NCBI GenBank assembly: GCA_023246355.1
Contig: JAHFIQ010000001.1
Location: 222,234 to 286,233, forward strand
DNA: 64,000 nt
Reading direction: 5' to 3'
Source: Candidatus Uhrbacteria bacterium
GTDB lineage: Bacteria; Patescibacteriota; Patescibacteriia; UBA9934; GWF2-40-263
Under the pieces are notes generated by a model, which was not told where the DNA came from, made no database searches, and saw only the letters and a list, made by a program, of their open reading frames with translations. Position 1 is the first letter of the stretch; every line of letters begins with the position of its first letter. Positions 2,707 to 60,384 of this stretch are shown in pieces. A program made the position numbers and the translations under genes.

Positions 2707-3651
2707 CTAGAACTGCACCAGGAAGCGGAAGGCGATGTTGACGAGCCGGTTGCCGCTCCAGTAGTCGTTGACATACGCGAGCCCACCGTCGCCGGTGTGG
2801 CCCACGATGAGCGCGCCCTGGGAACCGCAGCGGTTCTCGCACCACTCCACTGCATTGGTAGAACCAAGGTCTGGGAAGGAGTCGGCGGTGTGCTGGGTCA
2901 CCCAGTTGAAGAGGTTCCCCATGAAGTTGAAGGCCTTCACGGACTGGATGCGGGAATTGCCACCCAGGGGCTTGAAGACCCCTGAGACCTTGGGGAGGAT
3001 GTCCGCCACGAGGTCGTCTCCCTCACCCTTTTCCGAGTGCGGGTGGCTGAAGCGGGTCTTGAGGCCGATCGTCACCATGAGCCGGTCGTCGGGGTAGACG
3101 CCGTCCTGGTAGTTGGGCTTCTGGATGACCTCGAAGGCAATCCACCTTCCCAGCAACGGAAGAGGCGTGACATCAGCACCCGACAGGTATCGTTTCCAGT
3201 CAGGCTTCACGAAGCTCTTGGGATAGTCCTTCTCCTTCCAGGCCGGGACGAAGAAGAGCCCGAGCTTGAACTTGGCCATCAACCGACGTTGAGCACGGTT
3301 GAAGTCCGGTGGCTCAGGCAACTCGGTCTTGGGGCTGCCTTCCATCTCGTGCAAGGCGTCGAAGATCGTCTGCATCCAGGTGTGGAGCTGCGCCTTCCAG
3401 TCCTTTCCCGTGAGGCTGGGGTACTTGAGGCTCTTCAGGTGGTCGGAATGGGACTGCCGCCGCGACAGTTCCGCTTCTTCACGCTCGACGATCTCCGTCA
3501 GTTCAAGGAGGAAGCCTTCGCCGCGTGCTCCCAGCACTCCGGCGTGATTGAACAGGTCGAAGTACTTCACGATCGTGGGCATGCCCTCGCCGCCCGTACG
3601 ATTGACCTGACTGACGAGCTCCTTGACCCATGAAGGAATACTGAATTGCAT
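2707..3651 (-). CDS. high-GC hypothetical protein with FGE/C-type-lectin-like C-terminal domain; paralog of the DGR target
   Basis: About 60% GC. C-terminus VEWCENRCGSQGALIVGHTGDGGLAYVNDYWSGNRLVNIAFRFLV aligns with the DGR target C-terminus STWCWLRTRFGRGALDACDLGGVVRVF. Start chosen at MQFSIPSW (3651), which has a GGAGAG SD; the ORF track extends to 3666. Confidence 0.55.
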   Translation of the reverse strand: MQFSIPSWVKELVSQVNRTGGEGMPTIVKYFDLFNHAGVLGARGEGFLLELTEIVEREEAELSRRQSHSDHLKSLKYPSLTGKDWKAQLHTWMQTIFDALHEMEGSPKTELPEPPDFNRAQRRLMAKFKLGLFFVPAWKEKDYPKSFVKPDWKRYLSGADVTPLPLLGRWIAFEVIQKPNYQDGVYPDDRLMVTIGLKTRFSHPHSEKGEGDDLVADILPKVSGVFKPLGGNSRIQSVKAFNFMGNLFNWVTQHTADSFPDLGSTNAVEWCENRCGSQGALIVGHTGDGGLAYVNDYWSGNRLVNIAFRFLVQF

Positions 3652-3738
3652 TGTCTCTCCAGCCACAGGTACCAGTTCCTCCTCGACTGAGTAAACAGTC
3701 GATTTGGTTCTCCCTATGGACGGTTGTCCTACACGGTG

Positions 3739-3826
3739 CCGCCGTGCCGGTGTGAGTGCAAAACCGACGGTTTTCGGCTCTGCAAACGACTGGAGACTAT
3801 ACTCCCGTTTGGCGGAAAAGTCAAGG
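3739..3826 (-). promoter_or_regulatory. conserved promoter plus 5' leader element, copy A
   Basis: Minus strand reads TTGACT-17nt-TATAGT (-35 at 3819..3824, -10 at 3796..3801). The ~75-nt transcribed leader is about 85% identical to copy B at 16354..16442. Confidence 0.6.
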
Positions 3827-3846
3827 AATTGGTATGTTTGTGTGGT

Positions 3847-3984: not shown

Positions 3985-4673
3985 TCGAAATCGTGCCGGC
4001 CTTTTTGGCCGAATCAGAACGTGAGTTTGAGCGCAACCTTCGGCTGGTCGAGAACGACTGCCAGCTCATCCAGGTCGACGTGCTCGACGGCTCGTTGTTT
4101 CCCAACACCTGCTGGTTCGACGCGGAGCGAATCGGCAACCTCAAGACCAACGTCGAAATGGAACTTCACCTCATGGTCGAGAATCCCATTCCCATCATCG
4201 AGGCGTGGAAAAAATATGTGCCAACCTTCAAACGCGCCATTGTTTCCGCGGAGATGCATCGACCAACAGGCGCGGTCACGGGCTTCATCAAAGACGAACT
4301 CAAACTCGAAGTTGGCGTGGCGCTGAGTCCTGAGTCGCCCCTCAAAGAAATCGAAGAAGTGCTCCACCAAGTTGATGCGCTCACCATCATGAGTGTGCAT
4401 CCAGGTCGCCAAGGTCAAACCTTTGGCGATCCTGAGCACGGGGGAAACCTCCCGTTCATCTTGGAAAAAATCGCCCAAGCTCGGGCGCATCGACCTGATC
4501 TCATGATCGAAGTAGACGGAGGCGTGACAGCTGAACTCATCCCGGCTCTGATAAAAGCTGGTGCCAATCGTCTGTGTGTTGGTGGCGCGATCTTCAAATC
4601 AACTGACCCAGCTGGTACACTGAAGGAAATGAACCAATACCTTTATGAACTTTTGCAAAACAGCGCAGGCTAA
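3981..4673 (+). CDS. rpe: ribulose-phosphate 3-epimerase
   Basis: LHLMVENP and MIEVDGGV motifs; 230 aa. The last three codons and the stop are supplied by a REP element. Confidence 0.85.
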   Translation: MIEIVPAFLAESEREFERNLRLVENDCQLIQVDVLDGSLFPNTCWFDAERIGNLKTNVEMELHLMVENPIPIIEAWKKYVPTFKRAIVSAEMHRPTGAVTGFIKDELKLEVGVALSPESPLKEIEEVLHQVDALTIMSVHPGRQGQTFGDPEHGGNLPFILEKIAQARAHRPDLMIEVDGGVTAELIPALIKAGANRLCVGGAIFKSTDPAGTLKEMNQYLYELLQNSAG

Positions 4674-5457
4674 AGCCTGCGGCTACCTCACAATCTTTAC
4701 CCTGCTCGCCATCCTTGCCCTACCTGTTCACGCCGCCACCGTCTCCGCTGACGACCTCACGCCTGGCGATCTGATCCGTGGGGAATCTTTTTCCGCTGTC
4801 TACTACTATGCAGAAGATGGGCTGCGCTACGTTTTCCCAAATAGCAAAGTCTACTTCACGTGGTACGAGGACTTCGACGATGTGAGCTGGCTTTCCGATG
4901 AAGATCTCGCCACCATAGAAATCGGCGGCAACGTCACCTACAAACCAGGCATCAAGATGGTCAAGATCAACTCCAGTCCCCAGGTCTATGCGGTTGGAGC
5001 TGGTGGTATCTTGCGCGGCATTGCATCTGAAAACGTTGCACAAGAACTCTACGGCGAGGATTGGAACCAGAATATTGATGACATCCCTGATGGATTTTTT
5101 GGCAACTATGAAATTGGAGAGGACATCGAACTTTCAACCCAGTACGATCCAGATGTTGAAGAGCAAGACGCTCAAGACATCGATGACGATCGCGACATCA
5201 AACCGTTTGTGGAGATCACGGTCACAGAGGAAGGCTACAGCGAACCAACCGTGACTATCGACTCAGGAACAGCCGTCCGATGGACGAATGAGGGAGAAGA
5301 AAACCACACCGTGACGGAATGGGATAGCGTCTGGGGATCTGGAACGCTGAAGCCCGGTCACCACTTCACCCACTATTTCCGGGAAGAAGGCACCTGGCAC
5401 TACTATTCAAAAACCGACGATCGCAACATCTTTGAAGGTGCTGTGATTGTGGAATAA
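4645..5457 (+). CDS. secreted protein with degenerate cupredoxin-like C-terminal domain (paralog A)
   Basis: Signal peptide. About 60% identical to 5533..6348, but the copper-site residues are replaced (WHYYSKTDD versus FHCKYHSSM). Confidence 0.6.
   Translation: MNFCKTAQAKACGYLTIFTLLAILALPVHAATVSADDLTPGDLIRGESFSAVYYYAEDGLRYVFPNSKVYFTWYEDFDDVSWLSDEDLATIEIGGNVTYKPGIKMVKINSSPQVYAVGAGGILRGIASENVAQELYGEDWNQNIDDIPDGFFGNYEIGEDIELSTQYDPDVEEQDAQDIDDDRDIKPFVEITVTEEGYSEPTVTIDSGTAVRWTNEGEENHTVTEWDSVWGSGTLKPGHHFTHYFREEGTWHYYSKTDDRNIFEGAVIVE
4663..4687 (+). repeat. REP element copy 1 (GCGCAGGCTAAAGCCTGCGGCTACC)
   Basis: Palindromic core GCAGGCT.AAGCCTGC with a GTAG/CTAC end. The same 25-mer recurs at 12876, 13404, 13442 and 48977. 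Confidence 0.8.
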
Positions 5458-5532: not shown

Positions 5533-6348
5533 ATGACAAAACGCCTTTCCTTTTTGTCAGTCTCGCTGCTCGCCATAGCCATGGTTTCAAGCGTTGTTCT
5601 CTCCGGGCTCGTTCCAACCGCTGGCGCCACCAGCCTCACAGATCCAGAAGATCTGGAGCCAGGTGACCTTATCCGTGGAGAAACATTTTCTGCTGTCTAC
5701 TATTACGGTGAAGATGGTTTCCGCTATGTGTTCCCCAACAGCAAAACCTACTTCACTTGGTATGAAGACTTCGACGACGTGGTTTGGTTGTCTGACTCGG
5801 ACATGTCCACGATCCAAATCGGCGGCAACGTCACCTACAAGCCAGGAGTAAAAATGATCAAAATCAACTCTGACCCAACCGTCTACGTGGTAGGCATGGG
5901 CGGAGAAATCCAAGGCATTCCATCGGAGGAAGTAGCTGAAGCGCTCTACGGTTCTACCTGGAACCAACAAATTGACGATGTCCCAGATGGATTCTTTAGC
6001 AACTACACCATGGGCTCGGATCTGGAATTCGCCTCGCAGTTTGATCCAGATGCAGAAGAAGCTGAGGCCGACTCCATCAACGATGACAAAGCTCTTCAAC
6101 CCTACGTCACCATCACCATCACGGACAACGAATACAGCGACGAGAACCTCACGGTCGAAGCGGGAACCGCCGTGCGCTTCGTGAATGAAGGAAGCAGCAA
6201 CCACACGGCAAGTGCAGACGACGGCTCCTGGGGAACCGGAACCCTCGCCAGTGGCAAGAACTTCTCGCGTTACTTTGACGAGGAAGGCGACTATGACTTC
6301 CACTGTAAGTATCATTCAAGCATGACGGGAACGATCACTGTTGAGTAA
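5533..6348 (+). CDS. secreted cupredoxin (plastocyanin/azurin-like) domain protein (paralog B)
   Basis: C-terminal YDFHCKYHSSMTG fits the type 1 copper site pattern H..C..H....M, with an upstream His at NHTA; signal peptide. Confidence 0.65.
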   Translation: MTKRLSFLSVSLLAIAMVSSVVLSGLVPTAGATSLTDPEDLEPGDLIRGETFSAVYYYGEDGFRYVFPNSKTYFTWYEDFDDVVWLSDSDMSTIQIGGNVTYKPGVKMIKINSDPTVYVVGMGGEIQGIPSEEVAEALYGSTWNQQIDDVPDGFFSNYTMGSDLEFASQFDPDAEEAEADSINDDKALQPYVTITITDNEYSDENLTVEAGTAVRFVNEGSSNHTASADDGSWGTGTLASGKNFSRYFDEEGDYDFHCKYHSSMTGTITVE

Positions 6349-8286: not shown

Positions 8287-9333
8287 TCAACCGTTCTTGA
8301 ACTTCATACGTTTTACCAAATTGAGTAGTCGCCTCTGATTCCTAAATTCCTGACCATGGTCGAAAGCCGACAAACAGGACTGAATTGTCTCACTGAAATT
8401 TTCCTCTAGGATGCCCGTATCCTCGTATTGCGCTACTAAATTCTCAACCCGTCCGAAAAGTCGTTTTCGCGTTGTTCTCCTCATTGTTCGTACCGTTGGT
8501 CTCAACACCCAACCAAGAAAGTCGACACCTTGTTGGTATGTCCGAATGGAAACCTTGTACGGATGAAGGCGCAAAAGTAGACGTCGTGAGAGATACGATT
8601 CAATTTGCAGAAGGGCTGATTCCAAAAACTGACGACTCTCGTGAAGGAGAATAAAATCATCACAAAACCGAATGTACCACCGTATCCTCAGGTGTTCCTT
8701 CACCCAATGGTCGAACGCATTGAGGTAGACGTTGGCAAAAAGTTGGCTGGTGACATTCCCAAGTGGGAGTCCGCACGATACCCCCTTGACAGACAAGTGG
8801 CTTGCTACGACTTGGCCTATAAGCCGCAACAATGGTTCATTGGTGACACGCCGTGCAAGCATCCCCATAAGCACATCGTGCTGTATCGAATCGAAAAATT
8901 TGGAGATGTCGCACTTGAGCGCATAAATGCGACGCGAGTCGTTACAGGATCCTCGTCTCAAAAAATCTTCAAGTCGGTCAATCGCCGCATGCGTCCCTTT
9001 TCCCTTACGCGAAGCAAACGAATCGAAAATGAAGGATGACTCGAAAGCCGGTTCCAAGACGTTCACAAGCGCCTGATGTACAACCCTGTCACGAACGCTT
9101 GCTTTGCTGATGTACCGACGTTTCGGATCATGAATATAAAATTGCTCATACCCACCGTGGAGATAGGATCCATTCTCAAGGTCGTGTACCAGATCAAACA
9201 ATTCATCCTCAAGCCTCATGGAAAATTGAAGCACATCTTGCTTGGCCATCTTTCCACAACTGAATACTTCCCAGGCATCAAACAAATTTTCTAACGAAAT
9301 AACTTCTTGTAGTGATCCGTTCCTATGAGTCAC
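8287..9333 (-). CDS. DGR reverse transcriptase
   Basis: 348 aa; LPLGNVTSQLFANVYLNAFD is the DGR-specific SQ variant of RT motif 4, and FCDD stands in for YxDD. Confidence 0.85.
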   Translation of the reverse strand: MTHRNGSLQEVISLENLFDAWEVFSCGKMAKQDVLQFSMRLEDELFDLVHDLENGSYLHGGYEQFYIHDPKRRYISKASVRDRVVHQALVNVLEPAFESSFIFDSFASRKGKGTHAAIDRLEDFLRRGSCNDSRRIYALKCDISKFFDSIQHDVLMGMLARRVTNEPLLRLIGQVVASHLSVKGVSCGLPLGNVTSQLFANVYLNAFDHWVKEHLRIRWYIRFCDDFILLHESRQFLESALLQIESYLSRRLLLRLHPYKVSIRTYQQGVDFLGWVLRPTVRTMRRTTRKRLFGRVENLVAQYEDTGILEENFSETIQSCLSAFDHGQEFRNQRRLLNLVKRMKFKNG

Positions 9334-9361
9334 CCCCCCCCCGACGGAGTTTGATCGATGG

Positions 9362-9736
9362 TTGACTGGATTCTCCGGTGAAGAATTCGGATTGGTTCAT
9401 AAATTGTATGAATGGTACAAGCTCCTGCACACCGATGTGATTAGGTTCCCCAAAACGGAACGATACACGATTGGTGAAGTGTTGAAGATGCGGACACTTC
9501 AGCTCATCGAAGGAATCTGGGAGGCGAACTCCCTACCACTCCCAGAACGCCTTGCCTTACTCGACCGACTACAACGATCACTCGACCTTATAAAAATCCT
9601 CATTCGCCTCACGTACGATCTAGGAATCTACAAACGTGATGGTTACATCTATCGGGAAAACCGACTCATGGAAATCGGTCGCATGCTCGGAAGTTGGCGA
9701 AAGAAGACACGAGGCCGCTTGGGTCTCGTGTCTTAA
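9362..9736 (+). CDS. avd: Avd-like accessory variability determinant (four-helix-bundle, TIGR02436-like)
   Basis: 124 aa, basic; LYEWYKLL, FPKTERYTIG and a C-terminal EIGRMLGSWRKK resemble Avd proteins. TTG start. It lies on the strand opposite to the RT and TR. Confidence 0.6.
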   Translation: MTGFSGEEFGLVHKLYEWYKLLHTDVIRFPKTERYTIGEVLKMRTLQLIEGIWEANSLPLPERLALLDRLQRSLDLIKILIRLTYDLGIYKRDGYIYRENRLMEIGRMLGSWRKKTRGRLGLVS

Positions 9737-9746
9737 CAGTTAACGG

Positions 9747-9867
9747 CTTCCACGGCACGGCCACCTTCATTGTCGTACGGGATCGAGAGATTGTCAGCGT
9801 CGTTCCTGTTGACCCTCACCTCGCCGTCGTTGTCGTTGGCGTTGAGAGCACCCTGGCCGAAGCGCGT
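9747..9867 (-). repeat. DGR template repeat (TR)
   Basis: 121-bp match to the VR. On the coding (minus) strand every one of the 18 differences is an A in TR (AAC codons N-A-N-D-N-D..N-R-N..). The 3' end carries the IMH*-like GGTGGCCGTGCCGTGGAAG. Confidence 0.85.
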
Positions 9868-10145
9868 TGCGCCGCTTCCTTCCTTACTCACCAGAGGGAA
9901 CCCATGGGTTGCCTCCTGAATTCCGGGATCCGGAAATGTATTCGGACGGACAGACTGTTTGGCGATCCGCCATAAAAGCGGCACGAAGTGGTTCAACTGT
10001 TTACTCACCGTTACCGACTTCTCCGATTATCATGAACCGGATGCTCGTGGGTAACAGCAGGATGTTGGTAACCAACAAGTTCTCGCTTATTGGTCTACAA
10101 ACCTTCACCAGCAGTATTGTAACAAGATCCAAAACAAAATTAATA

Positions 10146-10182
10146 GCCCTGCTCCGCTACCGCTTGGTAGCAAGAGCAGGGC
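10146..10182 (-). promoter_or_regulatory. GC-rich nested hairpin immediately 3' of the VR (DGR target-recognition hairpin and/or terminator)
   Basis: GCCCTGCTC-tt-GCTACC-aagc-GGTAGC-g-GAGCAGGGC, followed by a T-rich run. Confidence 0.6.
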
Positions 10183-10195
10183 AGGGGGTCAAGGT

Positions 10196-10942
10196 TCAAG
10201 CAGCATTCTTGACCACTTCCACGGCACGGCCACCCTCATTGCCGAACGGGATCGAGAGAGAGGCAGCGTCGCACCTGAAGACCCTCACCACGCCGCCGAG
10301 GTCGCAGGCGTCGAGAGCACCCCGGCCGAAGCGCGTGCGCAGCCAGCACCAGGTGCTGACGTCGATGTGCTCGCCGATGAGGTCGCGGTGCGTCCAGTAG
10401 ACGATCGCGTATTCCTCCAGCGAGAGGAGCTTCACCGCCGCGGTGAGGTCATTCCAGCTCGTATTGATCCGGGGGCACCTGGGAGCGATCTCCACAGTGA
10501 ACCAGTAACCAGCCTGGGCGATCTCCCAGCCGATCTTGGCACGGTCGTCGGCGTTCGCGACAGTCCAGTGATTGGACTGACCGTGCGCAATCATCCACCC
10601 TTCATAGGTCATCTCGACCGTCGACGGGCGGTAGAACAGCTCGCGACCTTCGCGGCGCCAGCGCTTGAGGGTCGTGTTGGAGACGCCGGGCCTGGGCACC
10701 GCGATCGTGAACCCGCGGGCGCGGAAGTTCGCCTCGATGGCGACACGGCGCTCCTCGGCCAGGTCGACCTTGGGCCTGTGGTCCTTCTCGCCGGCCTTTG
10801 CGCGAACTTCGGCCTCGCTGGTGCCGTCGATGATCGCCTGCAGGACAGTACGAGCAATCGCGGCCTTGGCCGGATCGGCGAGGGCGTGGCGTTGTGCTTC
10901 GTCAAACTGGCGCCGGAGCGCCAACTCAATCATGGCTTCCAT
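10196..10942 (-). CDS. DGR target protein (high GC; C-terminal C-type-lectin/FGE-like variable domain)
   Basis: VR sits at the C-terminus. Start chosen at MEAMIE, which has an AAGGAAAG SD; the ORF track extends to 11035. Confidence 0.7.
   Translation of the reverse strand: MEAMIELALRRQFDEAQRHALADPAKAAIARTVLQAIIDGTSEAEVRAKAGEKDHRPKVDLAEERRVAIEANFRARGFTIAVPRPGVSNTTLKRWRREGRELFYRPSTVEMTYEGWMIAHGQSNHWTVANADDRAKIGWEIAQAGYWFTVEIAPRCPRINTSWNDLTAAVKLLSLEEYAIVYWTHRDLIGEHIDVSTWCWLRTRFGRGALDACDLGGVVRVFRCDAASLSIPFGNEGGRAVEVVKNAA
10216..10336 (-). repeat. DGR variable repeat (VR) at the 3' end of the target gene
   Basis: Encodes TRFGRGALDACDLGGVVRVFRCDAASLSIPFGNEGGRAVE against the TR-encoded TRFGQGALNANDNDGEVRVNRNDADNLSIPYDNEGGRAVE. 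Confidence 0.85.
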
Positions 10943-11035
10943 GGTCTTTCCTTTGCTTGTGCCCATGTCGCGCCGGAGCGCAGAGGCACGTTTTGCCCCA
11001 AATTCCAGGCCGAACGCCCAGGTTGGAACCAACAA

Positions 11036-11064
11036 ACAATACAGGAAAATTCGGTTTTTGTCAA
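11036..11064 (-). promoter_or_regulatory. sigma70-like promoter of the DGR target gene
   Basis: Minus strand TTGACA(11059..11064)-17nt-TATTGT(11036..11041). Confidence 0.55.
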
Positions 11065-11074
11065 GCGATTTGGT

Positions 11075-11641
11075 ATGATTCTGCTACCTGTGAAAAAAGA
11101 GGAACAAAACAACGCATACATCGACGCGGCGAACCTGCATCATGGTGTTCAGTCCCAAGGTTGGATTCTTGACTATCGTCGTTTCCGCATCTGGTTAAAA
11201 GAAAAGCATGGGGTAAAAAATGCCTATCTATTTCTTGGGTTGATTCCAAAGCACCATGCCCTGTATCAATCATTACAAGAGGCAGGATTCATCCTGATCT
11301 TTAAGGAAGTTATCTTTGACCGTGATGGTAAGCCTAAGGGTAATTGCGATGCGGATCTTGTCTTGCAGGTCACTGTGGACTTCTTTCATAAAACGTTCCA
11401 AAAAGCAGTCATCGTCACGAGCGATGGAGATTACGCTGGACTCGTAAAAATGCTGCACGCTCATCATGCACTGGAAATGATCGTCTCTCCAGCACAAGAA
11501 AAAAAGTGTTCAATTTTATTGAAACGATCGAATGCTCCCATGACTTATCTTGGACAGTCCCGTATGCGTCCACTTCTAGAGCGCCGAAAAGAAAAAGCCC
11601 CCGATGCGGACGGAACCGCACAGGGGTCTTCTTCGTGGTGA
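11075..11641 (+). CDS. NYN/LabA-like (PIN-like) domain protein
   Basis: AYIDAANLHHG....DADLVLQVTVD...AVIVTSDGDYAGLV pattern of DUF88/NYN. The track ORF 10367..11641 is inflated by the antisense frame of the target gene. Confidence 0.55.
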   Translation: MILLPVKKEEQNNAYIDAANLHHGVQSQGWILDYRRFRIWLKEKHGVKNAYLFLGLIPKHHALYQSLQEAGFILIFKEVIFDRDGKPKGNCDADLVLQVTVDFFHKTFQKAVIVTSDGDYAGLVKMLHAHHALEMIVSPAQEKKCSILLKRSNAPMTYLGQSRMRPLLERRKEKAPDADGTAQGSSSW

Positions 11642-12848: not shown

Positions 12849-12875
12849 TACTGTAGTTGGCTTGAAGATCTTGGG

Positions 12876-12900
12876 GGTAGCCGCAGGCTTCAGCCTGCGC
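12876..12900 (-). repeat. REP element copy 2 (inverted orientation)
   Basis: GGTAGCCGCAGGCTTCAGCCTGCGC. Confidence 0.8.
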
Positions 12901-12925
12901 CCTGCTAAGCTGGTGCTGTTGAGAT

Positions 12926-13402
12926 ATGCTTCCAATCGAACGACCACATCGACTGGAACGTGACGATTACGAAGGTTTTCTCTGTTGTACATTCACTTGT
13001 TGCATTGAAAATAGGAAAAACTTTTTTGTCACACCGGAGATCTTTTCAATCTTCGAATCAAAGCTGCGACACGTTCTTGAAAAGAATCATTGTGGTGCTC
13101 ATGTTTATCTGTTCATGCCAGACCACCTTCATATTTTAGCAGAAGGAAAATCAGAAGAAGCGGATCTCTGGAAAATGATCGTCGACTTTAAGCAGCAAAC
13201 TGGATATTGGCTCTCAAAAAATGGAAATGGAATTCGATGGCAAAAAGATTTTTATGATCACATCCTTCGAGAGGAGGAGGATGTGACAAAGCACATGGCC
13301 TATATTCTCGATAACCCCATCCGTGCTGGTCTTGCGCGAGATTGGAGGGACTACCTGTACAAAGGATCGACACTCTATAATCTTCATGAACTCGAAATCT
13401 AG
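12926..13402 (+). CDS. REP-associated tyrosine transposase (RAYT, IS200/IS605-like Y1 HUH transposase)
   Basis: HLHIL (HuH) and YILDNPIRAGLA motifs; flanked by REPs in opposite orientations. Confidence 0.8.
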   Translation: MLPIERPHRLERDDYEGFLCCTFTCCIENRKNFFVTPEIFSIFESKLRHVLEKNHCGAHVYLFMPDHLHILAEGKSEEADLWKMIVDFKQQTGYWLSKNGNGIRWQKDFYDHILREEEDVTKHMAYILDNPIRAGLARDWRDYLYKGSTLYNLHELEI

Positions 13403-13403
13403 G

Positions 13404-13428
13404 GCGCAGGCTAAAGCCTGCGGCTACC
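13404..13428 (+). repeat. REP element copy 3
   Basis: GCGCAGGCTAAAGCCTGCGGCTACC. Confidence 0.8.
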
Positions 13429-13441
13429 GTCAAAAACCTAC

Positions 13442-13466
13442 GCGTAGGCTAAAGCCTGCGGCTACA
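13442..13466 (+). repeat. REP element copy 4
   Basis: GCGTAGGCTAAAGCCTGCGGCTAC. Confidence 0.75.
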
Positions 13467-15564: not shown

Positions 15565-16275
15565 CTACTTCCGGCGAAGACGCACGGTCCCGTAACCCGG
15601 GTCGGCGAGGCCAGAGCGCCTGTCGAGGTCGAGCCTCACCTGACCCCTCCACACCTCGAGGAAGGCACAGTTCATGCGGCTGTCACGGAGCACCGTCCTG
15701 GGGAGGTCGATGGAGTGCTCGTTCTCCACCACGATCGTTGGGTGAAGGGCGTAGGCGAAGACGCCTTCGAGAGCCGTACCGGCCAGGACGTCGCCGACGA
15801 GCTCGTCTCGGCAGTGGTCGGGGCGACGGTTGCGGTTCTTGCGTCCGTCGTCGTGGCGGAACCAGAACGGCTCGGTGGGGAGCGGGAAGTTCTGGTCGAA
15901 GGGCTCGGCTGAGTCCTCGGCGTAGCCCAGCTCCTCGTACTCGATTTCCAGCATCCTGCAGGAGCGCAGAAGTCCCGGACGAGGGTCGCACAGGGAGAGC
16001 AGCGGTAGCTCTGGGTCGTCGGCGACCAACCCTTCCGGAATCTTGGGGATCCCGGCCAGGTACGCCTTGAAGTTCTTGGCGCCGACACTCGGGTCACGAC
16101 CGAAGCCCCGATCCCACAGGCGCTTGGCCTGAATGCGCCACTGGTTCACGCCGCCCATCTCCAGGCGACGGATAAGTTCCTCGACCTCTGAGCCGATGCC
16201 TTCCTGACCGGCGCTCAGTCGCGCAGCCTGGATCTCGTGGAGCTTGGCCACATGGCCAACATCGAACAGTCTCAT
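15565..16275 (-). CDS. high-GC hypothetical protein (236 aa)
   Basis: About 66% GC. Shares the conserved promoter/leader with the 2707 gene; weak similarity to the N-terminal regions of 2707 and the DGR target. Confidence 0.5.
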   Translation of the reverse strand: MRLFDVGHVAKLHEIQAARLSAGQEGIGSEVEELIRRLEMGGVNQWRIQAKRLWDRGFGRDPSVGAKNFKAYLAGIPKIPEGLVADDPELPLLSLCDPRPGLLRSCRMLEIEYEELGYAEDSAEPFDQNFPLPTEPFWFRHDDGRKNRNRRPDHCRDELVGDVLAGTALEGVFAYALHPTIVVENEHSIDLPRTVLRDSRMNCAFLEVWRGQVRLDLDRRSGLADPGYGTVRLRRK

Positions 16276-16353
16276 TTGAAACTCCGTAAGTCGGTATCCT
16301 CACAAGAGCCTAAGCCCTCTGTTTGGTACGCCGACGGACAGATGCGCACAGTT

Positions 16354-16442
16354 CCGCCGTGCCGGTGTGTGTGTGCAAAACCGGAGGATTCCGGCTCTGC
16401 AAACGACTGGAGACTATACTCCTGTTTGGCGGAAAAGTCAAG
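16354..16442 (-). promoter_or_regulatory. conserved promoter plus 5' leader element, copy B
   Basis: TTGACT(16436..16441)-17nt-TATAGT(16413..16418); the leader is about 85% identical to copy A. Confidence 0.6.
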
Positions 16443-16462
16443 AGTTGATATAGTATTCGTAT

Positions 16463-18959: not shown

Positions 18960-20363
18960 CTATTGTGGGTGGCGTTTTTCGTATTCACTCTGACGTGCAC
19001 GCGCTTCGTCTGCCAACTTTGGCCAGACCTGCTTCTCGATCTGCGCGCGAAACGCTTCGTCGAAAAGAACCTTGTAGATCCACTCGTACTTCAGCAGATA
19101 CAGCCGCGTTTCCTCGGGCAACTCCACACAGGCCTTTCCTGTGGAAGCCTGATCCGGGCTCCTCTGTGCACAGGAAGCAGCGCAGTCGTTCTCCCTCCAA
19201 CGCTCTTTGCATTCGTGGATCACACGGTGGACCGTCGCCACGTTCGCGTTGTACCCGGCGGCCAGGACGAGCTGACGTTCCCATACATTGTTTACGATGT
19301 AGGTCCGATGGGCGTCTTCATCTTTGCCAGCGAAGGTCCAGAGCTCTGCGTCCGCGTGACAGATCATCGCCTTGATCGAGGTGTGATGATCTGTGCGACC
19401 GTCCACGGAATTTTCGGGAAGGTCTGCACGGGGATACTGCTCACGAATGGCCTTGTAAGGACCACCGACAATCTGACCGATCCCACGCGCATCTGCGAAG
19501 GACTTGGTGTACTGGTAGCTGCGCCAGCGGTTGAGGCTCAGAGTCACCAGGGCGCGATCGAGCATTTCGAGTCGATCGGCATCCGTGCCTTCCACAAACC
19601 ACTTGTCCGAGTACATCTGCTCGGTCAAGATGAGCGCGATCACGTGGTCGGGTGTGCCGAAATCGGTCACGTAGCGGTTGGCGATGAACTGACTGCGTAC
19701 ATCCTTTGCGCGCAGCTCGTAGAACGCGGCCAAAACCGCATCGCGTAGATACTCCACGCCAGCCGTCCGAAGCTCGGGGTCGTTGAGCCTGGTCGAATAG
19801 GGAATGTAGACCGCTGGACTGATTCCGTCAGGACCATTCGTGTCGTAAACCGCGGTTCGAATCGCGACCACTGTCCAGCCCGGAGGCGAGAAGACATTGA
19901 ATGGCGGATTGACTCCACCATTGCAGGCGCCGTCACGCTCGCATCTGACCGTGAAGCCTTCCTGCGACGGTTTGCCGCCATAGACTTCGATGAGTTGCAT
20001 CTTCCCCTGTTCATTGGAAGCCGCCAGAAGGTAGTCTCCCAGACAGCGCTTCCATCCTTCCTGTGAGTCGCTTTTGGGCACACACTTCTCTTGCGAGAGA
20101 TGCGAGGAGGAGACGAGCTTCACTCCATAGCGGATCACCTCCACAAGATCTTGTGGCACGTCCGGCAAACGCGGAGGCCCTGGAGGGACGAACGCTCTGT
20201 GACCGTCGATCTGCACCGCGACCACAGGGGGCGGCGCCGCGAAAGGGTCGATCACGTCGACAGACTGCTGTGCTGGATTGCAGGCTCGCAGCAGCAGCGG
20301 CAGCAACAACATGAGGGCAAGCAGCATCGCAACCGCTTTGAGCGGATGATACTTGGTAAGCAC
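18960..20363 (-). CDS. high-GC secreted lipoprotein, hypothetical (possible lytic-transglycosylase-like)
   Basis: Lipobox LLRAC; about 63% GC; own TTGACA-17-TATCTT promoter. GIGQIVGGPY only weakly resembles the SLT motif. Confidence 0.45.
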   Translation of the reverse strand: MLTKYHPLKAVAMLLALMLLLPLLLRACNPAQQSVDVIDPFAAPPPVVAVQIDGHRAFVPPGPPRLPDVPQDLVEVIRYGVKLVSSSHLSQEKCVPKSDSQEGWKRCLGDYLLAASNEQGKMQLIEVYGGKPSQEGFTVRCERDGACNGGVNPPFNVFSPPGWTVVAIRTAVYDTNGPDGISPAVYIPYSTRLNDPELRTAGVEYLRDAVLAAFYELRAKDVRSQFIANRYVTDFGTPDHVIALILTEQMYSDKWFVEGTDADRLEMLDRALVTLSLNRWRSYQYTKSFADARGIGQIVGGPYKAIREQYPRADLPENSVDGRTDHHTSIKAMICHADAELWTFAGKDEDAHRTYIVNNVWERQLVLAAGYNANVATVHRVIHECKERWRENDCAASCAQRSPDQASTGKACVELPEETRLYLLKYEWIYKVLFDEAFRAQIEKQVWPKLADEARARQSEYEKRHPQ

Positions 20364-26171: not shown

Positions 26172-26286
26172 TTGTCCTGGCGCCTACCTACTCTCGCGCA
26201 ATCGCACTACCATTGGCCCAAGAGAGCTTAACGGCCGTGTTCGAGATGGGAACGGGTGTGGCCTCTCAAGGAAGTGGCACCAAGAC
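26172..26286 (-). rRNA. rrf: 5S rRNA
   Basis: Reverse complement contains ..CCCGTTCCCATCTCGAACACGG..GCGAGAGTAGGTAGGCGCCAGG. Confidence 0.8.
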
Positions 26287-26623
26287 AAAGGAGTCTTTCT
26301 TTTTTTGTAGAAGAGATATTTCTCGCTTGAGACGAATCAAACGTAGAAATGGTTGTAGAGCTCGACCTATTAGTACTGCTCCGCTGAACGTCTTACGACG
26401 CTTACACGTACAGCCTATCAACCTCATAGTCTCTGAGGGGTCTCAAATGAAAACTAATCTTGGGAACGGCTTCGCACTTAGATGCTTTCAGCGCTTATCC
26501 GTACCGAACGTAGCTACCCGGCATTGCCCTTGGCAGGACAACCGGTACACGAGAGGTTCGTTCATTCCGGTCCTCTCGTACTAGGAATGAATTCCCTCAA
26601 TTTTCGATGCCCACGGCAGATAG

Positions 26624-26656
<33 letters not shown>

Positions 26657-26665
26657 ACTCACGTA

Positions 26666-26697
<32 letters not shown>

Positions 26698-27283
26698 AAC
26701 CTTCTCCAGCTCCAGGATGCGATGAGTCGACATCGAGGTGCCGAACCTCCCCGTCGCTGTGGACGCTTGGGGGAGACTAGCCTGTTATCCCCGGAGTAGC
26801 TTTTATCCGATGAGCTTCCGCCGTCCTATTTCGTACGGTCGGATCACTAACTTCTGCTTTCGCAACTGCTCGACTGGTCGGTCTCGCAGTAAAGCTGGCT
26901 TCTGGGTTTGCCCTTAGAGCGCGATTTCCATCCGCGCCAAGCCAACCTTTGTAAACGCCTCCGTTACATTTTAGGAGGCACCCGCCCCAGGTAAACTACC
27001 CACCAGATCCTGTCCCTGACTCCGGTTTCACGGAGTCTGGTTAGAATGCACACGACACAAGGGTGGTATCTCACTGGTGCCCGAAGGCTCCCACCTATTC
27101 TCAACATGTGATGCATGAACCCAAGATCAAGTTATAGTAAAGCTTCACGGGGTCTTTTCGTCTAGCCGCGGGTAGTGAGCATCTTCACTCACATTGCAAT
27201 TTCGCCGAGTCCATCGTTGAGAGAGTTCTCAACTTGTTATGCCATTCGTGCAGGACGGAACTTACCCGTCAAGGAATTTCGCT

Positions 27284-28002
27284 CGGGTCTGTTACACTCC
27301 CATTCATGGGAGGAGGTGATCATTTCTGTCACCTTCTGCATGTCACCATGCAGGTCGGACTATATCATCGTCTGTTAAGACGTTTGGCGTGTAGTCTCTG
27401 AGGATTCTAGAAATCGTGATGGAACCTTTCGGTTCATACTTTGAATAATGCGAGCAGCATCTTGAAGACCTTCAATTGTTTGATGTCGTCTGTTTTCCAT
27501 TAACTGTAAAACGGCGACAAACTTTTCGAAGTCTTCTTGTTTTGCTGTTCGTAATGGATGTTGAATGAAGAATGGGATGATCTTCAAACGAAGATCCCTC
27601 GTTGACCTCACACAATATCTCAGCAACGATTCGCGGTGATTGTCTGACCTTCGATTAAGATAGATCGATCCACACTGAAAGTGATCATGGATCAACTTCA
27701 GTGCCTCTCGACTCTTCTCACCTTGGGTTACGACAAACTCTGGGAACAATTGCCAGCCAAAGCTAGTGGTTGAATTACGGATCATGCTGACTGAGAAGCA
27801 ACCCTCTCCGTCGACAAATCCTACAATCCACCCAACGATATCTAGTCTTTCCTGCTGATTGTCTGGTCTATTAATCGCCATACTATGGCCGAATAATACC
27901 ATAGACCAGGTGTTCCAGCATATAGCCAAATTTTCTCTCTACATCTCCGCGGCAAACGAAGTTCAAGAGGAGGACATTCACCTCACTAAGGCAGTGTTAT
28001 TC
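27284..28002 (-). mobile_element. group I intron in 23S rRNA (inserted after ..GTCCTAAGGT, E. coli position about 1917) carrying a homing endonuclease gene
   Basis: The exon sequence is continuous when 27284..28002 is removed (GTCCTAAGGT | AGCGAAATTCCTTG). The intron ends in G and the upstream exon ends in U. Confidence 0.75.
27375..27929 (-). CDS. LAGLIDADG homing endonuclease
   Basis: IVGFVDGEGCF motif; lies wholly within the intron. Confidence 0.8.
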   Translation of the reverse strand: MAICWNTWSMVLFGHSMAINRPDNQQERLDIVGWIVGFVDGEGCFSVSMIRNSTTSFGWQLFPEFVVTQGEKSREALKLIHDHFQCGSIYLNRRSDNHRESLLRYCVRSTRDLRLKIIPFFIQHPLRTAKQEDFEKFVAVLQLMENRRHQTIEGLQDAARIIQSMNRKVPSRFLESSETTRQTS

Positions 28003-28856
28003 ACCTTAGGACGATTATAGTTATCGCCGGCGTTCATCCGCGCTTCAGTCGAAGGCTGCCGCCCTTGCGGGCTTGACCCCCTTCCTTAACGTTCGGACAC
28101 TGGCCAGGCATCAGCCCCTATACATCACCTTACGGTTTAGCAGGGACCTGTGTTTTTGGTAAACAGTCAGTTGAGATCTTTCGCTGCGGGTCGCATCCTC
28201 CCGGATGCAACCAGGCCTTATCCCGAAGTTACGGCCACTGTTTTGCCTAGTTCCTAAACGATGGTTCTCTCGTACGCCTTGGCACATTCACGTGCCCATC
28301 TACCTGTGTCGGTTTCCGGTACGGGTCTCTCTCACATAATCTTAGCAGCTTTTCTTGGCGCCCTGTCCTTTCCCCTTGTCAGTCCGATTGGACCAACTTG
28401 CGATTGTCTCCGTGCTCGAGATTGAACTCAGCTTGGCGGACTTCCCTACCAAGCGCCTAGAAACACCCAACGCTATAGCCATAGAGCGCGGGAAATTTCA
28501 GAACGCGTCCCTGCGTCAGTGTGAAAGAGAGTGCAGGAATAATAACCTGCTGTGCATCGACTACGCCTTTCGGCCTCGCCTTAGCTCCCGACTAACCCTG
28601 GGTCGATTCGCGTTGCCCAGGAAACCTTAGATTTACGGCGGACGGGATTCTCACCCGTCTTTTTGCTACTCATGCCAACATTCTCTCTTCGCATCGCTCC
28701 ACCCGTGGTCACCCACGAGCTTCAGTGCTGATACGAATGCTCCCCTACCGCGCCCTTCACTAACGTGAAGGACACCCTCAACTTCGGCACGTCATTTAGC
28801 CCCGGTACATTTTCGGCGCAAGAAAGCTTGACCAGTGAGCTGTTACGCTATCTTTA

Positions 28857-28894
<38 letters not shown>

Positions 28895-29511
28895 AGCCTT
28901 CTCACCACCTTTTACACTTAATGACGATTTAGGGGCCTTAGTTTGAGATCTGGGCTGTTGCCCTTTCGACCAATGGAGCTTCGCCCCCATGGTCTGACTG
29001 CCGGGAACACATAATGGTATTCGGAGTTTGGTTAGGCTCGCTAGCCGAAGCCGCTAAGCCCATTCAGTGCTCTACCCCCATTATGTTATTTACCGACGCT
29101 AGTCCAAAAACTATCTCGGGGAGAACCAGCTATTACCGAGTTCGATTGGAATTTCTCCGCTATCCACGCGTCATCCCCGACTTTTGCACAGGTCGTGGGT
29201 TCGGGCCTCCACGGGTTGTTACACCCGCTTCACCCTGCGCATGGATAGGTCACCCGGTTTCGGGTCGTGTGCGCGTCACACTCTATCTTTCTACTCGACC
29301 CCGCTTACCAAACTTGGCAGCGATTGAATCGAGTAGAGAGAAAGATCACGCGGGTTAACGCTCGCTTTCACTACGCCTTCGTCCCGGAGGACTTAAGCAA
29401 GCGACGCACAGCACACTCGTTGGCTCATTCTTCAATAGGAATGCCATCACCCCTTGCGAGGCTCTGACTCCTTGTAAGCATACGGTTTCAGATACTATTT
29501 CATTCCCCTCT

Positions 29512-29544
<33 letters not shown>

Positions 29545-30509
29545 GTTCACTATCGATCAGAACATGTATTTAGCCTTACCAGATAGTCCCGGCAGGTTCC
29601 TACAGGATTTCACGAGTCCCGTAGTACTCAAGGATGTCACTTATGATGGTGCGAATGAATTTCACATACAGGACTATCACCTTCTGTGGTTCTCTTTTCC
29701 AAGAGATTTTGTTATTCATCACACAGGTCCCATCACTCGTCTTTGAAAGAAGACGACCGTAACCCTTACAACCCCTACAACCACAACGGCTTCCACCTTT
29801 CGCCACCGTTTACATGTTGACTTGCGTCGCGATGCTCACCGTAACTTCATGATCGTAGGTTTGGGCTATTTCCTGTTCGCTCGCCGCTACTAAGGAAATG
29901 GATTCGCTTGCACGTTTCCACGCATCGAGAACTCGTGCGTAAAAATGTGAAACGAATAATACTTTTTCTTTTCCTCTGGGTACTGAGATGTTTCACTTCC
30001 CCAGGTTCCCTTCCTGCACCTATGTATTCAGTACAGGACCATGCGGCATTCCCCGCATGAGGTTTCCCTATTCGGAAATCTTCGGATCAAAGGTTGCTTG
30101 CCACCTCCCCGAAGCTTATCGCAGGCTGCTACGTCCTTCATCGGCACGTTCTGTCGAGCCATTCACCGTATGCCCTTATTAATGCTCTACAACCATTTCT
30201 AAATTCGATTTAGAGAATGGTGTATCTCTTCTACCCTATTGTTCAATTGTGAAAGGTCGTCTGGCCGATATGAGAGACGGCTCTATTCTTCGGTGCAGAT
30301 TTTGTCATCTGAACCCAAGGACACAAAAAACCGCGCAGGCGGTCTTCACCGTAACCAAAGTGTTTACGATAAGATCGCTCTGTCATCGTGAAACTTGTGT
30401 TACGTTTGTCATAGATGTGGTCTCCGTGAGCTCTCCCTCTCTTCAATCCCTCTGGATTCAGCCTCGGTTCAGGGGACAAAAGAGGAAGAACGTGTTTCAA
30501 ATTACTGGC

Positions 30510-40780: not shown

Positions 40781-41302
40781 TCATGGCCAGGTGATCGTGG
40801 GAGTCTCGGAGCCCGATCGAATGCGGGAGGCCACGTGACTGAACACCCGCAAGCTGGAGCAGAAGTCGATCGCGAGCCTGTGGCGTACCACACCTTCCTT
40901 GAGGGTCTCGATGGAGACGACAGCCTTGACGACCTCGTCTGTGTTCTCGACATGTATCTCGTACTCACCATTCTGGATCCCGGCGACGGACTCGAAGTAG
41001 ACGACACCGGACACGACTTTGACAGGGTACGTGCCAACATCGAGAAGGTAGTCAGGTGGCATGAACCCACCTGGATCATAGGCGATCTTCCGTCCATTGC
41101 CCTCCTGGACATAGAACACTTGAGCCTGTTTGTCCCAAAAGATGAAGCCGCAGGCCTCAGGCAGACCGATCCTCTTTGCGTTCTTCCTCATCCAGTCGTT
41201 CTTTCCCGTCCAGGAGTCGAAACCCTCCTCCAACCTCCGACGGTCTTCGTCGGTAAGCCTGAACGGCGACATGTCGAGGTAGAACCGAATCAACGCTTCC
41301 AT
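40781..41302 (-). CDS. high-GC hypothetical protein (173 aa)
   Basis: About 60% GC; CAGGAG SD before MEALIRFY. Confidence 0.45.
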   Translation of the reverse strand: MEALIRFYLDMSPFRLTDEDRRRLEEGFDSWTGKNDWMRKNAKRIGLPEACGFIFWDKQAQVFYVQEGNGRKIAYDPGGFMPPDYLLDVGTYPVKVVSGVVYFESVAGIQNGEYEIHVENTDEVVKAVVSIETLKEGVVRHRLAIDFCSSLRVFSHVASRIRSGSETPTITWP

Positions 41303-58865: not shown

Positions 58866-58959
58866 CAAATCGTCAATCATAAAGCCGATCACACGATCGG
58901 TTTTTTGTTTCCAAAGGAAAACCCGCCGTGGCTAGAAGCCAGGCGGGTCGTTGCACGGG

Positions 58960-59787
58960 TTACCGTGCGGGCCAGTCTCGCCAGAGCGAGTAGGCATTCG
59001 CCGAGAGGTTGCCGCCGGGAGAGGAGGCAGAGCCAGGGCGGCAGTGGAGTGGCGCGTTGTCACCATGGCGCGGGGTGCGCCAGACGGTCTGCAGAGGCAG
59101 CCCAGGCACCTGGATCACCTTCCCGCTTTCACGCAGGTAGGTGAAGGTGAGAGCGTCGCCGCTTCGCCAGGTGGTGTAGAAACCAGTCTGGCGAGCAGGA
59201 TCGAGCACCTTGTAGGGCGTGGCGTCGGGTTCACCGTCACCGTCCAGATCCGCGTAGACTTCGACGAAACCCGAGGGAGCACCTGGCGGCGCCCACACAG
59301 GAACCGGGATCCCGTGGTTCATCACGATCACCCGAGCCTTGCTGGTTCCGCCGCAGCGTTCGTAGGAGCTTCGATCGCCCAGTGCGGTCACGTGAAGCGT
59401 GTCGCCCTCGATCTGCGTGAGGGTCTGGTAGATCGACACGAGACTCGGGCGCTGAACGCTCTGGTAGGGCACGCCGCCGACCACCGCAAAGGTGGTGCGA
59501 GCAGGAGCCGTAGAAGGCACAGAGATCGAAGTCGGTTCTTGACGATCGGCCGTCAGCTTGGCGACCGAGTCGCTGAGGCTCGCGACCTGCTCGCGAATCT
59601 CGACCTGGCCCTCTTGGATCTGACCGAGTTGATCGCTCAGGTCCTCTTGCGCTGCCTCGAGCGCCTGGAACCGAGGCTCGGCCATGCACGCCGCGATGGC
59701 CGCGGCATTGTGGTAGCGGTCCATGCAGGACTTGGCCAGATCCTGCGGCGCATCCGCGAACGCTACCGAGATGATGAGCGCGATCAT
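58960..59787 (-). CDS. high-GC secreted coiled-coil protein, hypothetical
   Basis: Signal peptide; about 66% GC; first gene of a three-gene minus-strand block. Confidence 0.45.
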   Translation of the reverse strand: MIALIISVAFADAPQDLAKSCMDRYHNAAAIAACMAEPRFQALEAAQEDLSDQLGQIQEGQVEIREQVASLSDSVAKLTADRQEPTSISVPSTAPARTTFAVVGGVPYQSVQRPSLVSIYQTLTQIEGDTLHVTALGDRSSYERCGGTSKARVIVMNHGIPVPVWAPPGAPSGFVEVYADLDGDGEPDATPYKVLDPARQTGFYTTWRSGDALTFTYLRESGKVIQVPGLPLQTVWRTPRHGDNAPLHCRPGSASSPGGNLSANAYSLWRDWPAR

Positions 59788-60257
59788 TTCTGCTCCTGGA
59801 TGGCATGAAGGGCGAGGGTCACGTCTTCTTCCGCACAGGCGGCCTGCTCGGCCGGGTTTGCGCGTTTTCGATCCTTGGGACAGGGAACGAGGCTGTTGTC
59901 ATGGGAGACGTTCTGCACCACGGTGGTGCCAAGTCGAGGAAGCGAACCTCCCTGACCGGTCCCCATGTACCAGCCGCTCGTGGTCGAAACCACATCCGCC
60001 GGCGCGTAGCCGTACAGACCAGACCCCGTGACGTAGCCATTGCCGGTCGTGAAACCGACGAAGGTATCCGTCATCTGCAGGTTGACTGGTTGCCCCTTGT
60101 CCATGGCCGCCTGTGCCAGGTCGAAGGACCGCTGTGCTTCCACGATGTCGACGGCCCCCTTGGCCGTTCCGAAGTAGGTGACGACCGGGGGTTCTTCGCC
60201 CACCGGTTGATGGATGGTTGCGCAGCCCACGAGGGCCAGAGGGATGAAGAATCGCAT
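59784..60257 (-). CDS. high-GC lipoprotein, hypothetical
   Basis: Lipobox LALVGC; start at MRFFIP. Confidence 0.45.
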   Translation of the reverse strand: MRFFIPLALVGCATIHQPVGEEPPVVTYFGTAKGAVDIVEAQRSFDLAQAAMDKGQPVNLQMTDTFVGFTTGNGYVTGSGLYGYAPADVVSTTSGWYMGTGQGGSLPRLGTTVVQNVSHDNSLVPCPKDRKRANPAEQAACAEEDVTLALHAIQEQK

Positions 60258-60384
60258 GGTGTTCTCCTTCGAAAAGAACGCTACAAAATACCATAAAAAT
60301 GGCATTTTGTCAATCAAAAACGCTTGAAACCCAATAAAATCAAATAGAAAAGCGGCTCATCCGAAGATGAACCGCCGTAATCGA

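Follow-up and report, generated by a model that had tools for sequence, protein, structure and literature searches.

The subject of this analysis is a retroelement in a 64-kb stretch of Candidatus Uhrbacteria DNA (contig JAHFIQ010000001.1 of assembly GCA_023246355.1), the whole of which we call the window. On the minus strand lie a target gene of 248 aa (10196-10942), with an N-terminal helical region and a C-terminal domain of the C-type lectin/formylglycine-generating enzyme (CLec/FGE) fold, a variable repeat (VR, 10216-10336) that encodes the last ~40 target residues, a template repeat (TR, 9747-9867) and a reverse transcriptase gene (RT, 348 aa, 8287-9333). TR and RT are separated by the accessory gene avd (124 aa, 9362-9736), which, unlike RT, TR, VR and target, is on the plus strand. 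Together these parts very probably form a complete chromosomal diversity-generating retroelement (DGR) of the kind known from the CPR (candidate phyla radiation), architecture B3. A previous sequence-only reading of this DNA had proposed a complete DGR, a proposal that holds for the RT, Avd, TR/VR and target components, each tested separately; the cassette is indeed complete, but avd had been left out of its list of parts.

TR and VR align without gaps over 121 nt at an offset of 469 nt, the minus strand being the sense strand. All 18 mismatches fall at plus-strand T positions of TR, which are A in the sense strand, and with 30 A among the 121 nt of TR the probability that 18 randomly placed mismatches would all land on A is ~6.8e-14. 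Realignment bears out the gapless 121-bp pairing and the 18 adenine-only mismatches of the earlier reading, and the strings quoted there (AACGCCAACGACAAC versus GACGCCTGCGACCTC, GNVTSQ, WCWLRTRFGRGAL and the common GC-rich 3' end) are all present. Codon positions 1 or 2 hold 28 of the 30 TR adenines, mostly within AAC codons, and the altered adenines have been replaced in VR by T (8), G (7) or C (3). The confinement of differences to template adenines is that of a DGR and shows RNA-templated, adenine-mutagenic copying that links TR to the tip of the target, and mismatches lie overwhelmingly at TR adenines in eight related loci too.

Both repeats end in a GC-rich 3' stretch of 19 nt (GGTGGCCGTGCCGTGGAAG). 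Beyond it their likeness runs 7 nt further, to 9740 and 10209, with three non-A differences there, and the flanks split: VR is followed by TGGTCAAG (10215-10208), which is specific to VR, and TR by CCGTTAAC, the asymmetry seen between an initiation of mutagenic homing site (IMH) and its TR counterpart (IMH*). Across six loci the VR flank GAAGTGGTC stays the same, whereas the TR flanks vary. When both strands of the 64-kb window were scanned with TR, scoring non-A positions only, no second or remote VR was found. The spacing between VR and TR is 465-493 nt in six loci of the Uhrbacteria type, 498 nt in the Peregrinibacteria locus L035 and 761 nt in the Saccharibacteria locus L036.

The position of VR in the target is also that of a DGR. 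In an alignment of the 50-sequence target family the hypervariable columns are confined to VR and are embedded in an invariant scaffold (TWCWLRTRFG.GAL...G.V.V...LS.P...GGRA.EVV). The C-type-lectin/FGE-like fold that had been proposed for the target C-terminus is the one assigned to that domain here too. The start of the gene needs revision, since the 50 homologues favour ATG 10942 (248 aa) as the most likely initiation codon over the TTG at 11035 chosen previously.

By its sequence, the RT falls in the DGR clade. It matches RVT_1 (3.8e-24) and the phage DGR-RT family phrog_1423 (3e-109), and its best match of solved structure is bRT of Bordetella phage BPP-1 (8ub7; E 6e-45, residues 3-308). 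Motif 4 reads LGNVTSQ, of the [I/L/V]GxxxSQ form; the catalytic residues D142, D225 and D226 are invariant, and the counterpart of bRT R74 and the motif that corresponds to I181 are kept. The catalytic box of the YxDD type is FCDD, where bRT has YMDD, and, like motif 4 and the R74 counterpart, is conserved throughout the Uhrbacteria clade. The earlier assignment to the DGR RTs is thus confirmed by the bRT and phrog_1423 matches, motif 4 and the intact aspartates. We considered whether the RT might instead be part of some other retroelement or of a defence system (group II intron, retron, defence-associated reverse transcriptase (DRT) or abortive infection (Abi) type), TR and VR being an ordinary partial gene duplication. 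Weak profile matches to group II RT (150 bits), Drt3a, retron and UG families would agree with this, as would public annotations that label relatives 'group II intron RT' or 'retron-type RT', but for the group II, retron, Abi and DRT models alike the scores lie far under the curated cut-off: 150 bits versus 300 for the group II model TIGR04416, where the aligned stretch (profile 22-274 of 353) is confined to the RT part, 44 versus 235 for retron, 70 versus 200 for Drt3a and 52 versus 390 for Drt2. PADLOC likewise returned generic RT similarity only. The best group II RT structure match (3e-20) is 25 orders of magnitude weaker than that of bRT, the RT has neither a maturase nor an endonuclease domain, no effector gene adjoins it, and no intron or retron RNA matched in Rfam at gathering or E<=1 thresholds, while an avd gene does adjoin. 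A plain duplication, for its part, is contradicted by adenine-confined mismatches (P ~7e-14) that recur in eight loci. This alternative is effectively refuted, and with it the grouping with group II or retron RTs that the sequence-only reading had named as fatal to its proposal.

The accessory protein beside the RT is bAvd-like. It matches PF22296 bAvd at 4.8e-11, above the Pfam cut-off (43.5 versus 40), NCBIfam NF033474 DivGenRetAVD at 2.3e-15, below that model's cut-off (56.8 versus 80), and phrog_3206, 'Avd protein of DGR', at 3.3e-17. Its gene is inverted in all 11 related loci that we fetched. With a reverse-strand avd within a TR-(avd)-RT core in a CPR host, the locus has the composition of the B3 type; we also considered the inversion as a possible novelty and rejected it, because this order (target-VR, TR, inverted avd, RT) is that of B3, to which 90% of CPR DGRs belong (Wu et al. 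2018, PMC5758913).

Pentose-phosphate and transketolase genes flank the cassette, and the same neighbourhood holds a DGR in the sister genome L004, whose RT is 78% identical to that of the window, and in L029 and L030, from which it follows that the element is a chromosomal one, inherited vertically. A phage origin was rejected on the grounds of these syntenic metabolic flanks and of a BFVD viral fold search with the target, which gave nothing under E 0.1.

A putative structured RNA around TR

Downstream of VR, a GC-rich hairpin (10182-10146) and a T-run (the whole spanning 10129-10182, minus strand) have the form of an intrinsic terminator of the target gene and possibly of a DGR target-site hairpin. 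Folded as DNA, the hairpin has an energy of -21.8 kcal/mol (z -4.9), and an equivalent hairpin and T-run follow VR in the window, L004, L030, L032, L033, L034 and L035. Beyond it, inspection of the sequence points to an extended -10-like element, TGTTACAAT (10116-10124, minus strand), as the putative promoter of a TR RNA. The form TGnTAnAAT stands at the -10 place in the window, L004, L032 and L034, with TTAGAAT, lacking the TG, in L030 and GATAAT in L033; the two-hexamer promoter scan did not pick up the element at 10116-10124.

Between this putative promoter and TR lies a structured 5' leader (9868-10109, minus strand) with helices H1-H4 and H6-H9. The leader, ~240 nt in length, is more than 90% identical to that of L004, while the proteins are just 71-78% identical. 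The RNAalifold consensus of six aligned loci contains 94 pairs. Across 71 leader pairs, standard pairs fill 94% of the cells, as against 84% in shuffled alignments and 37-51% in controls with slid partners. Compensatory changes affect 30 of the 71 pairs, compared with 14 +/- 2.5 in shuffles (0 of 500 reach 30) and 2-10 in the slid controls, although these counts rest on six sequences, two of them near-identical, which counts against the RNA model. The leader matched no Rfam family.

An open reading frame (ORF) of 91 aa over TR (9733-10008) is called as a gene in some pipelines; the covarying RNA and the indels among relatives that are not multiples of three led us to set this gene aside, and the sequence comparison suggests that it is probably non-coding. 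On the 3' side, folding predicts a 10-bp hairpin (9704-9734, minus strand) that begins 12 nt after TR and overlaps the last avd codons. We regard it as a candidate Avd-binding stem-loop, TR RNA terminator or both; in L030, L032, L033 and L034 its place is taken by an A-run, a GC hairpin and a T-run, which together make a bidirectional terminator ahead of the avd stop codon.

Taken as a whole, the arrangement suggests that TR appears in its own structured RNA of ~400 nt. The target gene would end at its own terminator, and a promoter just downstream of it would start a separate transcript made up of the ~240-nt leader, TR and the 3' hairpin.

A primer-like motif and its possible part in the choice of VR over TR

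The leader carries a short motif, AACCACUUC (9985-9993, minus strand), that we predict to act as primer and guide. It is an antisense copy of the VR 3' junction GAAG/TGGT, the stroke marking the end of the repeat, and its invariant form among the loci is (G/A)ACCACUUCG (9993-9985 in the window). The 3' half of the motif, CUUC, is able to pair with the GAAG at the extreme 3' end of TR (9750-9747), and the entire motif is the exact antisense of the VR junction GAAG/TGGT(C), a junction that does not vary among six loci whose TR flanks differ. Directly after the motif, one strand of helix H6 (9984-9974) pairs, with compensatory changes, with 9879-9869, the 11 nt that end one base short of the first TR nucleotide. 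The motif lies 226-259 nt from the TR 3' end in seven loci.

The more distant relatives vary these elements together. In L035 the junction is unrelated (CGG/GCTTCC), yet the leader has GGAAGCCCG, the antisense of that locus's own VR junction, at an equal distance, and after it comes a 10-bp helix with the nucleotides immediately 5' of TR. In L036 part of the motif is present ~250 nt upstream, and then a helix of the same type. BPP-1 served as a control: nucleotides 48-56 of its spacer RNA (Sp), AGGUGGUCA, which end at the primer A56, are the exact antisense of the IMH-specific VR sequence TGACCACCT, and when joined to cDNA begun at TR G117 they are colinear with antisense VR. The priming nucleotide A56 of Sp has been mapped experimentally (PMC6182149), Naorem et al. 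have suggested that pairing between primer and IMH might set the direction of homing (PMC5703328), and, according to a cryo-electron microscopy preprint, the strand after the primer forms a 'stop duplex' with sequence just upstream of TR (bioRxiv 10.1101/2023.10.23.563531).

We suggest the following course for the Uhrbacteria element. The leader segment AACCACUUC would pair with the GAAG at the TR 3' end (9750-9747), the adjacent H6 clamping the TR 5' end. RT-Avd would prime cDNA synthesis from the leader segment, probably at a 2'-OH as at A56 of BPP-1 Sp, and would copy TR from G9751, the predicted first copied base, with misincorporation opposite adenines. The resulting RNA-cDNA chimera would run colinear with antisense VR and with its VR-only flank TGGTC as well, so that VR rather than TR would be replaced. 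This leader-primer model would account for the two A's of GGAAG (9748-9749) being unchanged in all six Uhrbacteria-type VRs that we examined. On its sequence, the CPR RNA appears to be a circular permutation of the BPP-1 logic, with the primer and stop strand 5' of TR and not 3'. Here, beside the predicted primer, and in BPP-1, beside the known one, stands an antisense copy of a VR-only flank; its covariation with that flank across lineages makes the question of why VR is chosen over TR one that can be tested on sequences.

Several points weigh against leader priming. The leader-TR pairing is short (4 + 2-3 bp), and the motif match in the window and L004 covers only 8 nt, a length that, with this match taken on its own, 14-16 of 300 shuffles reach. 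The preprint, moreover, derives the Avd-binding stem-loops and stop duplexes of CPR DGRs from sequence downstream of TR (bioRxiv 10.1101/2023.10.23.563531), and the promoter, RNA ends, priming site and activity proposed here are all predictions. The cDNA might instead be primed downstream of TR as in BPP-1, from the 3' hairpin and antisense-avd RNA, with the leader serving folding or stability alone and the flank identity being coincidental or having another role. This is the BPP-1 paradigm (PMC6182149); the preprint predicts downstream stem-loops in 207 of 278 Avd-containing DGRs, its DGRs with such RNA elements including those of CPR (bioRxiv 10.1101/2023.10.23.563531), and a 10-bp hairpin does stand 12 nt past TR in the window. 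The hairpin, T-run and avd stop codon of the four relatives are, however, terminator-like, and in seven of eight loci the 450 nt after TR contain no match of at least 7 nt to the antisense of the VR junction; the match in L036, the exception, is not to a junction of the primer type. The leader, by contrast, keeps its motif at a constant distance, and motif and H6 covary across lineages. We consider downstream priming a live rival, though less likely than not.

Past transfer, possible present silence and the G tract

The comparison of the window with L004 bears indirectly on activity. Their TRs differ at 14 positions inside the repeat, and all 14 differences are reproduced in the matching VR, 13 being copied exactly and one, a new A, being mutagenized. 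TR-to-VR transfer therefore went on after the window and L004 lineages split. Within the sampled population, no VR difference separates the consensus contigs, which come from at least five samples and match the window over the cassette at 99.95-100% identity; the 1-2 nt differences among these contigs all lie outside the DGR, and VR and the G-run described below are the same in each. No present-day diversification is visible at the consensus level, a result that tells against current activity, with the proviso that consensus assemblies can hide minority variants and that the samples may be replicates of one study. The sequence-only reading had expected population variation confined to positions of TR adenines: between lineages this is what we find, VR differences tracking TR adenines and TR changes being copied, but within the population of at least five assemblies VR does not vary.

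The RT start lies at a homopolymer. A tract of ten C's on the plus strand, G10 in the sense of RT (9333-9342), lies within the 28 nt that separate the starts of the divergent avd and RT genes and is the sole G/C run of 8 nt or more in the window; its last G makes the GTG start of RT, and the homology of the RT to bRT reaches right up to it. Relatives of the Uhrbacteria type have a run at the same place with lengths of 6, 7, 9, 9, 11 and 13 (L030 3911-3916, L033 2913-2919, L031 426-434, L034 2909-2917, L004 5982-5992 and L032 3971-3983), and L029 lacks both run and RT N-terminus. In the distant relatives L035 (G9, 2651-2659) and L036 (G10, 2644-2653) the run is found instead inside the avd 3' end, 34-57 nt after TR. 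In the window and L032 the run followed by TG gives a GTG start, and the other loci have no canonical start there. Each of the seven loci of the Uhrbacteria type has an ATG 58 nt upstream (59 nt in L033), whose frame agrees with that of RT only in L033 and L034; in the window this would need G9.

To judge from its sequence, this pattern has the look of a phase-variable tract, which would fit the clonal VR seen here and the contig breaks in the L034 lineage. Against phase variation, the tract length is constant within the two populations checked (G9 of the L034 lineage is identical in three assemblies), and the upstream ATG may be conserved only as the antisense of a conserved Avd histidine codon. 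Nothing relevant on poly-G or homopolymers in DGRs was found in the searchable literature. In the L034 lineage, two assemblies (L045 and L046; Logan SRR12113383 and SRR12113385) start exactly at the VR 3' end, at position 497 of L044. Such breaks fit heterogeneity of VR in the population, and a break induced by the repeat is also possible.

How the intact cassette and the invariant VR go together is a matter of interpretation. The DGR may be silent in the sampled population, either regulated or switched to the OFF phase through G10, with VR a frozen record of past mutagenesis. Silence agrees with contigs of at least five samples being 100% identical in VR and throughout the cassette, with the reading frame, since at G10 the conserved ATG 58 nt upstream is out of the RT frame by one nucleotide (a -1 change would be needed), and with the L034 lineage, in frame at G9, where the VR 3' end is the exact breakpoint of two independent assemblies, as if VR were heterogeneous. 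Against this, the end of the run yields a GTG start at any tract length, and the RT may thus still be made; every ORF and catalytic motif is intact; minority variants would be concealed in consensus assemblies, and the samples may be single-study replicates; and the TR/VR repeat can itself cause contig breaks. We hold silence to be a real possibility, at a little under even chances. Tentatively, and with the expectation that it will more probably fail than stand, we put forward the combined proposal that the poly-G tract is a heritable, reversible on/off switch for RT and that the RNA is a circularly permuted BPP-1-type RNA whose upstream primer selects VR. A mutator is costly and calls for restraint, and a conserved, length-variable G-run placed exactly at the RT start makes the question of a phase switch testable.

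Target, neighbourhood and comparison with known DGRs

Outside its variable region the target has few recognisable features. Neither it nor the 50 family members matched Pfam, NCBIfam, PADLOC or PHROGs, and matches to sequences in the PDB were not significant (best E 0.3); its N-terminal ~95 residues are helical and match no known family. No signal peptide or transmembrane segment is evident by eye, no formal prediction having been made. A consensus scan places a sigma-70-like promoter, TTGACA-17-TATTGT (10 of 12 matches), at 11036-11064 on the minus strand. Within the several kb examined, no TR, Avd or RT accompanies six target homologues (L010, L013, L020, L022, L027 and L028), which may be remote targets or undiversified paralogues. 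The order in L012 is rearranged to TR-(avd)-target on a contig without RT, and L024 has two copies.

The composition of the target sets it apart. Its GC content is 0.65 and its GC content at third codon positions (GC3) 0.83, compared with 0.46 and 0.49 for RT and a GC3 of 0.54 for avd, and the GC3 excess extends to the part outside VR and holds against neighbouring genes as well. Target GC3 exceeds that of its own RT and avd in eight of eight DGR loci, over host GC contents of 0.41-0.62 (window, L004 and L030-L036 compared). Recent transfer, a recombination-associated GC bias and expression-linked codon use are possibilities. Six or seven other ORFs of the window without a domain are equally GC3-rich (0.69-0.82, against a window mean of 0.56), and such islands without a Pfam domain lie at 2707-3666(-), 15565-16275(-), 18960-20363(-), 40781-41302(-), 58951-60317 and 60385-62559(-). 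Two of them, 2707-3666 and 15565-16275, have a common upstream element of ~110 nt (3732-3835 and 16347-16451) with a TTGACT-17-TATAGT promoter and hairpins, and the target and the GC-rich gene 18960-20363 have similar upstream sequence (TTGACAAAA...TTTCCTGTAT). We rejected the idea that these GC-rich ORFans are paralogues of the target, as the hhalign result was weak and insignificant for 2707-3666 (E 0.006, probability 6.5%); the others gave none.

The host context is that of a CPR genome. The 23S rRNA gene (26349-30194, minus strand) spans 3846 nt against a model of 2925 nt, i.e. ~900 nt of insertions, and a 184-aa ORF (27375-27929) lies inside the gene; a 5S gene adjoins (26175-26284, minus strand) and 16S is not nearby. 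A 23S gene with insertions, unlinked to 16S, is typical of CPR genomes. The few named relatives of target and RT belong to Ca. Uhrbacteria or other Patescibacteria metagenome-assembled genomes. Among them, the RT of Ca. Uhrbacteria GW2011_GWA2_52_8d (L029, LCRH01000027.1) is 79% identical, and the assembly name presumably points to the 2015 groundwater CPR genome set. At 600-710 of L029 the G-run and approximately the first 37 RT codons appear to be deleted relative to the window, which would mark a degenerate copy or an assembly problem.

Beside the cassette, a gene for an NYN/LabA-like nuclease (11084-11641, plus strand) diverges from the target; considered as a possible part of the cassette, it was rejected because it is absent at the syntenic L004 locus, and it is probably outside the DGR. 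Palindromes like repetitive extragenic palindromes (REP) (GTAGCCGCAGGCTnnAGCCTGCGC; 12871-12903, 13401-13433 and 13442-13465) flank a 158-aa ORF (12926-13402, plus strand) with the HUH-type motif PDHLHIL, which by eye resembles a REP-associated tyrosine transposase. On the other side, 4645-5457 and 5533-6348 (plus strand) are tandem paralogues of ~270 aa with near-identical N-terminal halves. The contig's gene calls give cupredoxin-type Pfam matches at the C-terminus of the second (5533-6348) and record none for the first.

CPR DGRs were, reportedly, first surveyed by Paul et al. in 2017. The element shares with the CPR DGRs of architecture B3 and clade 2 its gene order, its place in a Patescibacteria chromosome, an AAC-rich TR and a target with no Pfam or transmembrane domain save the C-terminal CLec-type fold, and it does not differ from them in gene content. 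Clade 2 is itself the CPR-restricted, cell-encoded group of Roux et al. 2021, with targets that lack recognisable domains (PMC8144416), and the surveys drew mainly on a groundwater CPR metagenomic study (PMC5758913, PMC8144416). A structured leader with an upstream primer-like motif, a poly-G tract between avd and RT and a target GC3 excess were not found in the searchable CPR DGR literature. As a DGR the element adds little, given that CPR genomes are rich in this type of cassette and that close relatives come from groundwater CPR genomes of the kind that had been surveyed. Its value is that of a clean, small and syntenic example with several sequenced relatives, in which two open questions about DGRs become predictions at the level of sequence.

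The BPP-1 DGR has the order mtd-VR, avd, TR, Sp, brt. Like that system, the Uhrbacteria element has an RT that aligns over ~300 residues of 8ub7, an Avd partner, adenine-specific mutagenesis at codon positions 1 and 2, and repeats with a common GC-rich 3' end and then diverging IMH/IMH*-like flanks. In both, an RNA segment beside the primer (predicted here) is antisense-identical to the VR-only flank, and a helix links the strand that follows the primer with the nucleotides directly 5' of TR. Unlike the phage-borne BPP-1 element, it is cellular, its avd is inverted between TR and RT, and no 140-nt Sp separates those two; our prediction puts the primer-like motif, with the strand of the stop duplex, ~115-125 nt upstream of TR. 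The hairpin after VR, ~33 nt past the repeat end, is terminator-like, unlike that of BPP-1, and the target, at 248 aa and with no evident signal peptide or transmembrane segment, is no tail fibre as in BPP-1. Compared with Treponema denticola TvpA and other FGE-type CLec targets, it has 9-15% identity and no FGE-sulfatase Pfam match. Set beside these known systems, the element itself is ordinary and not novel, and it is the organisation of its RNA and the G-run that merit follow-up.

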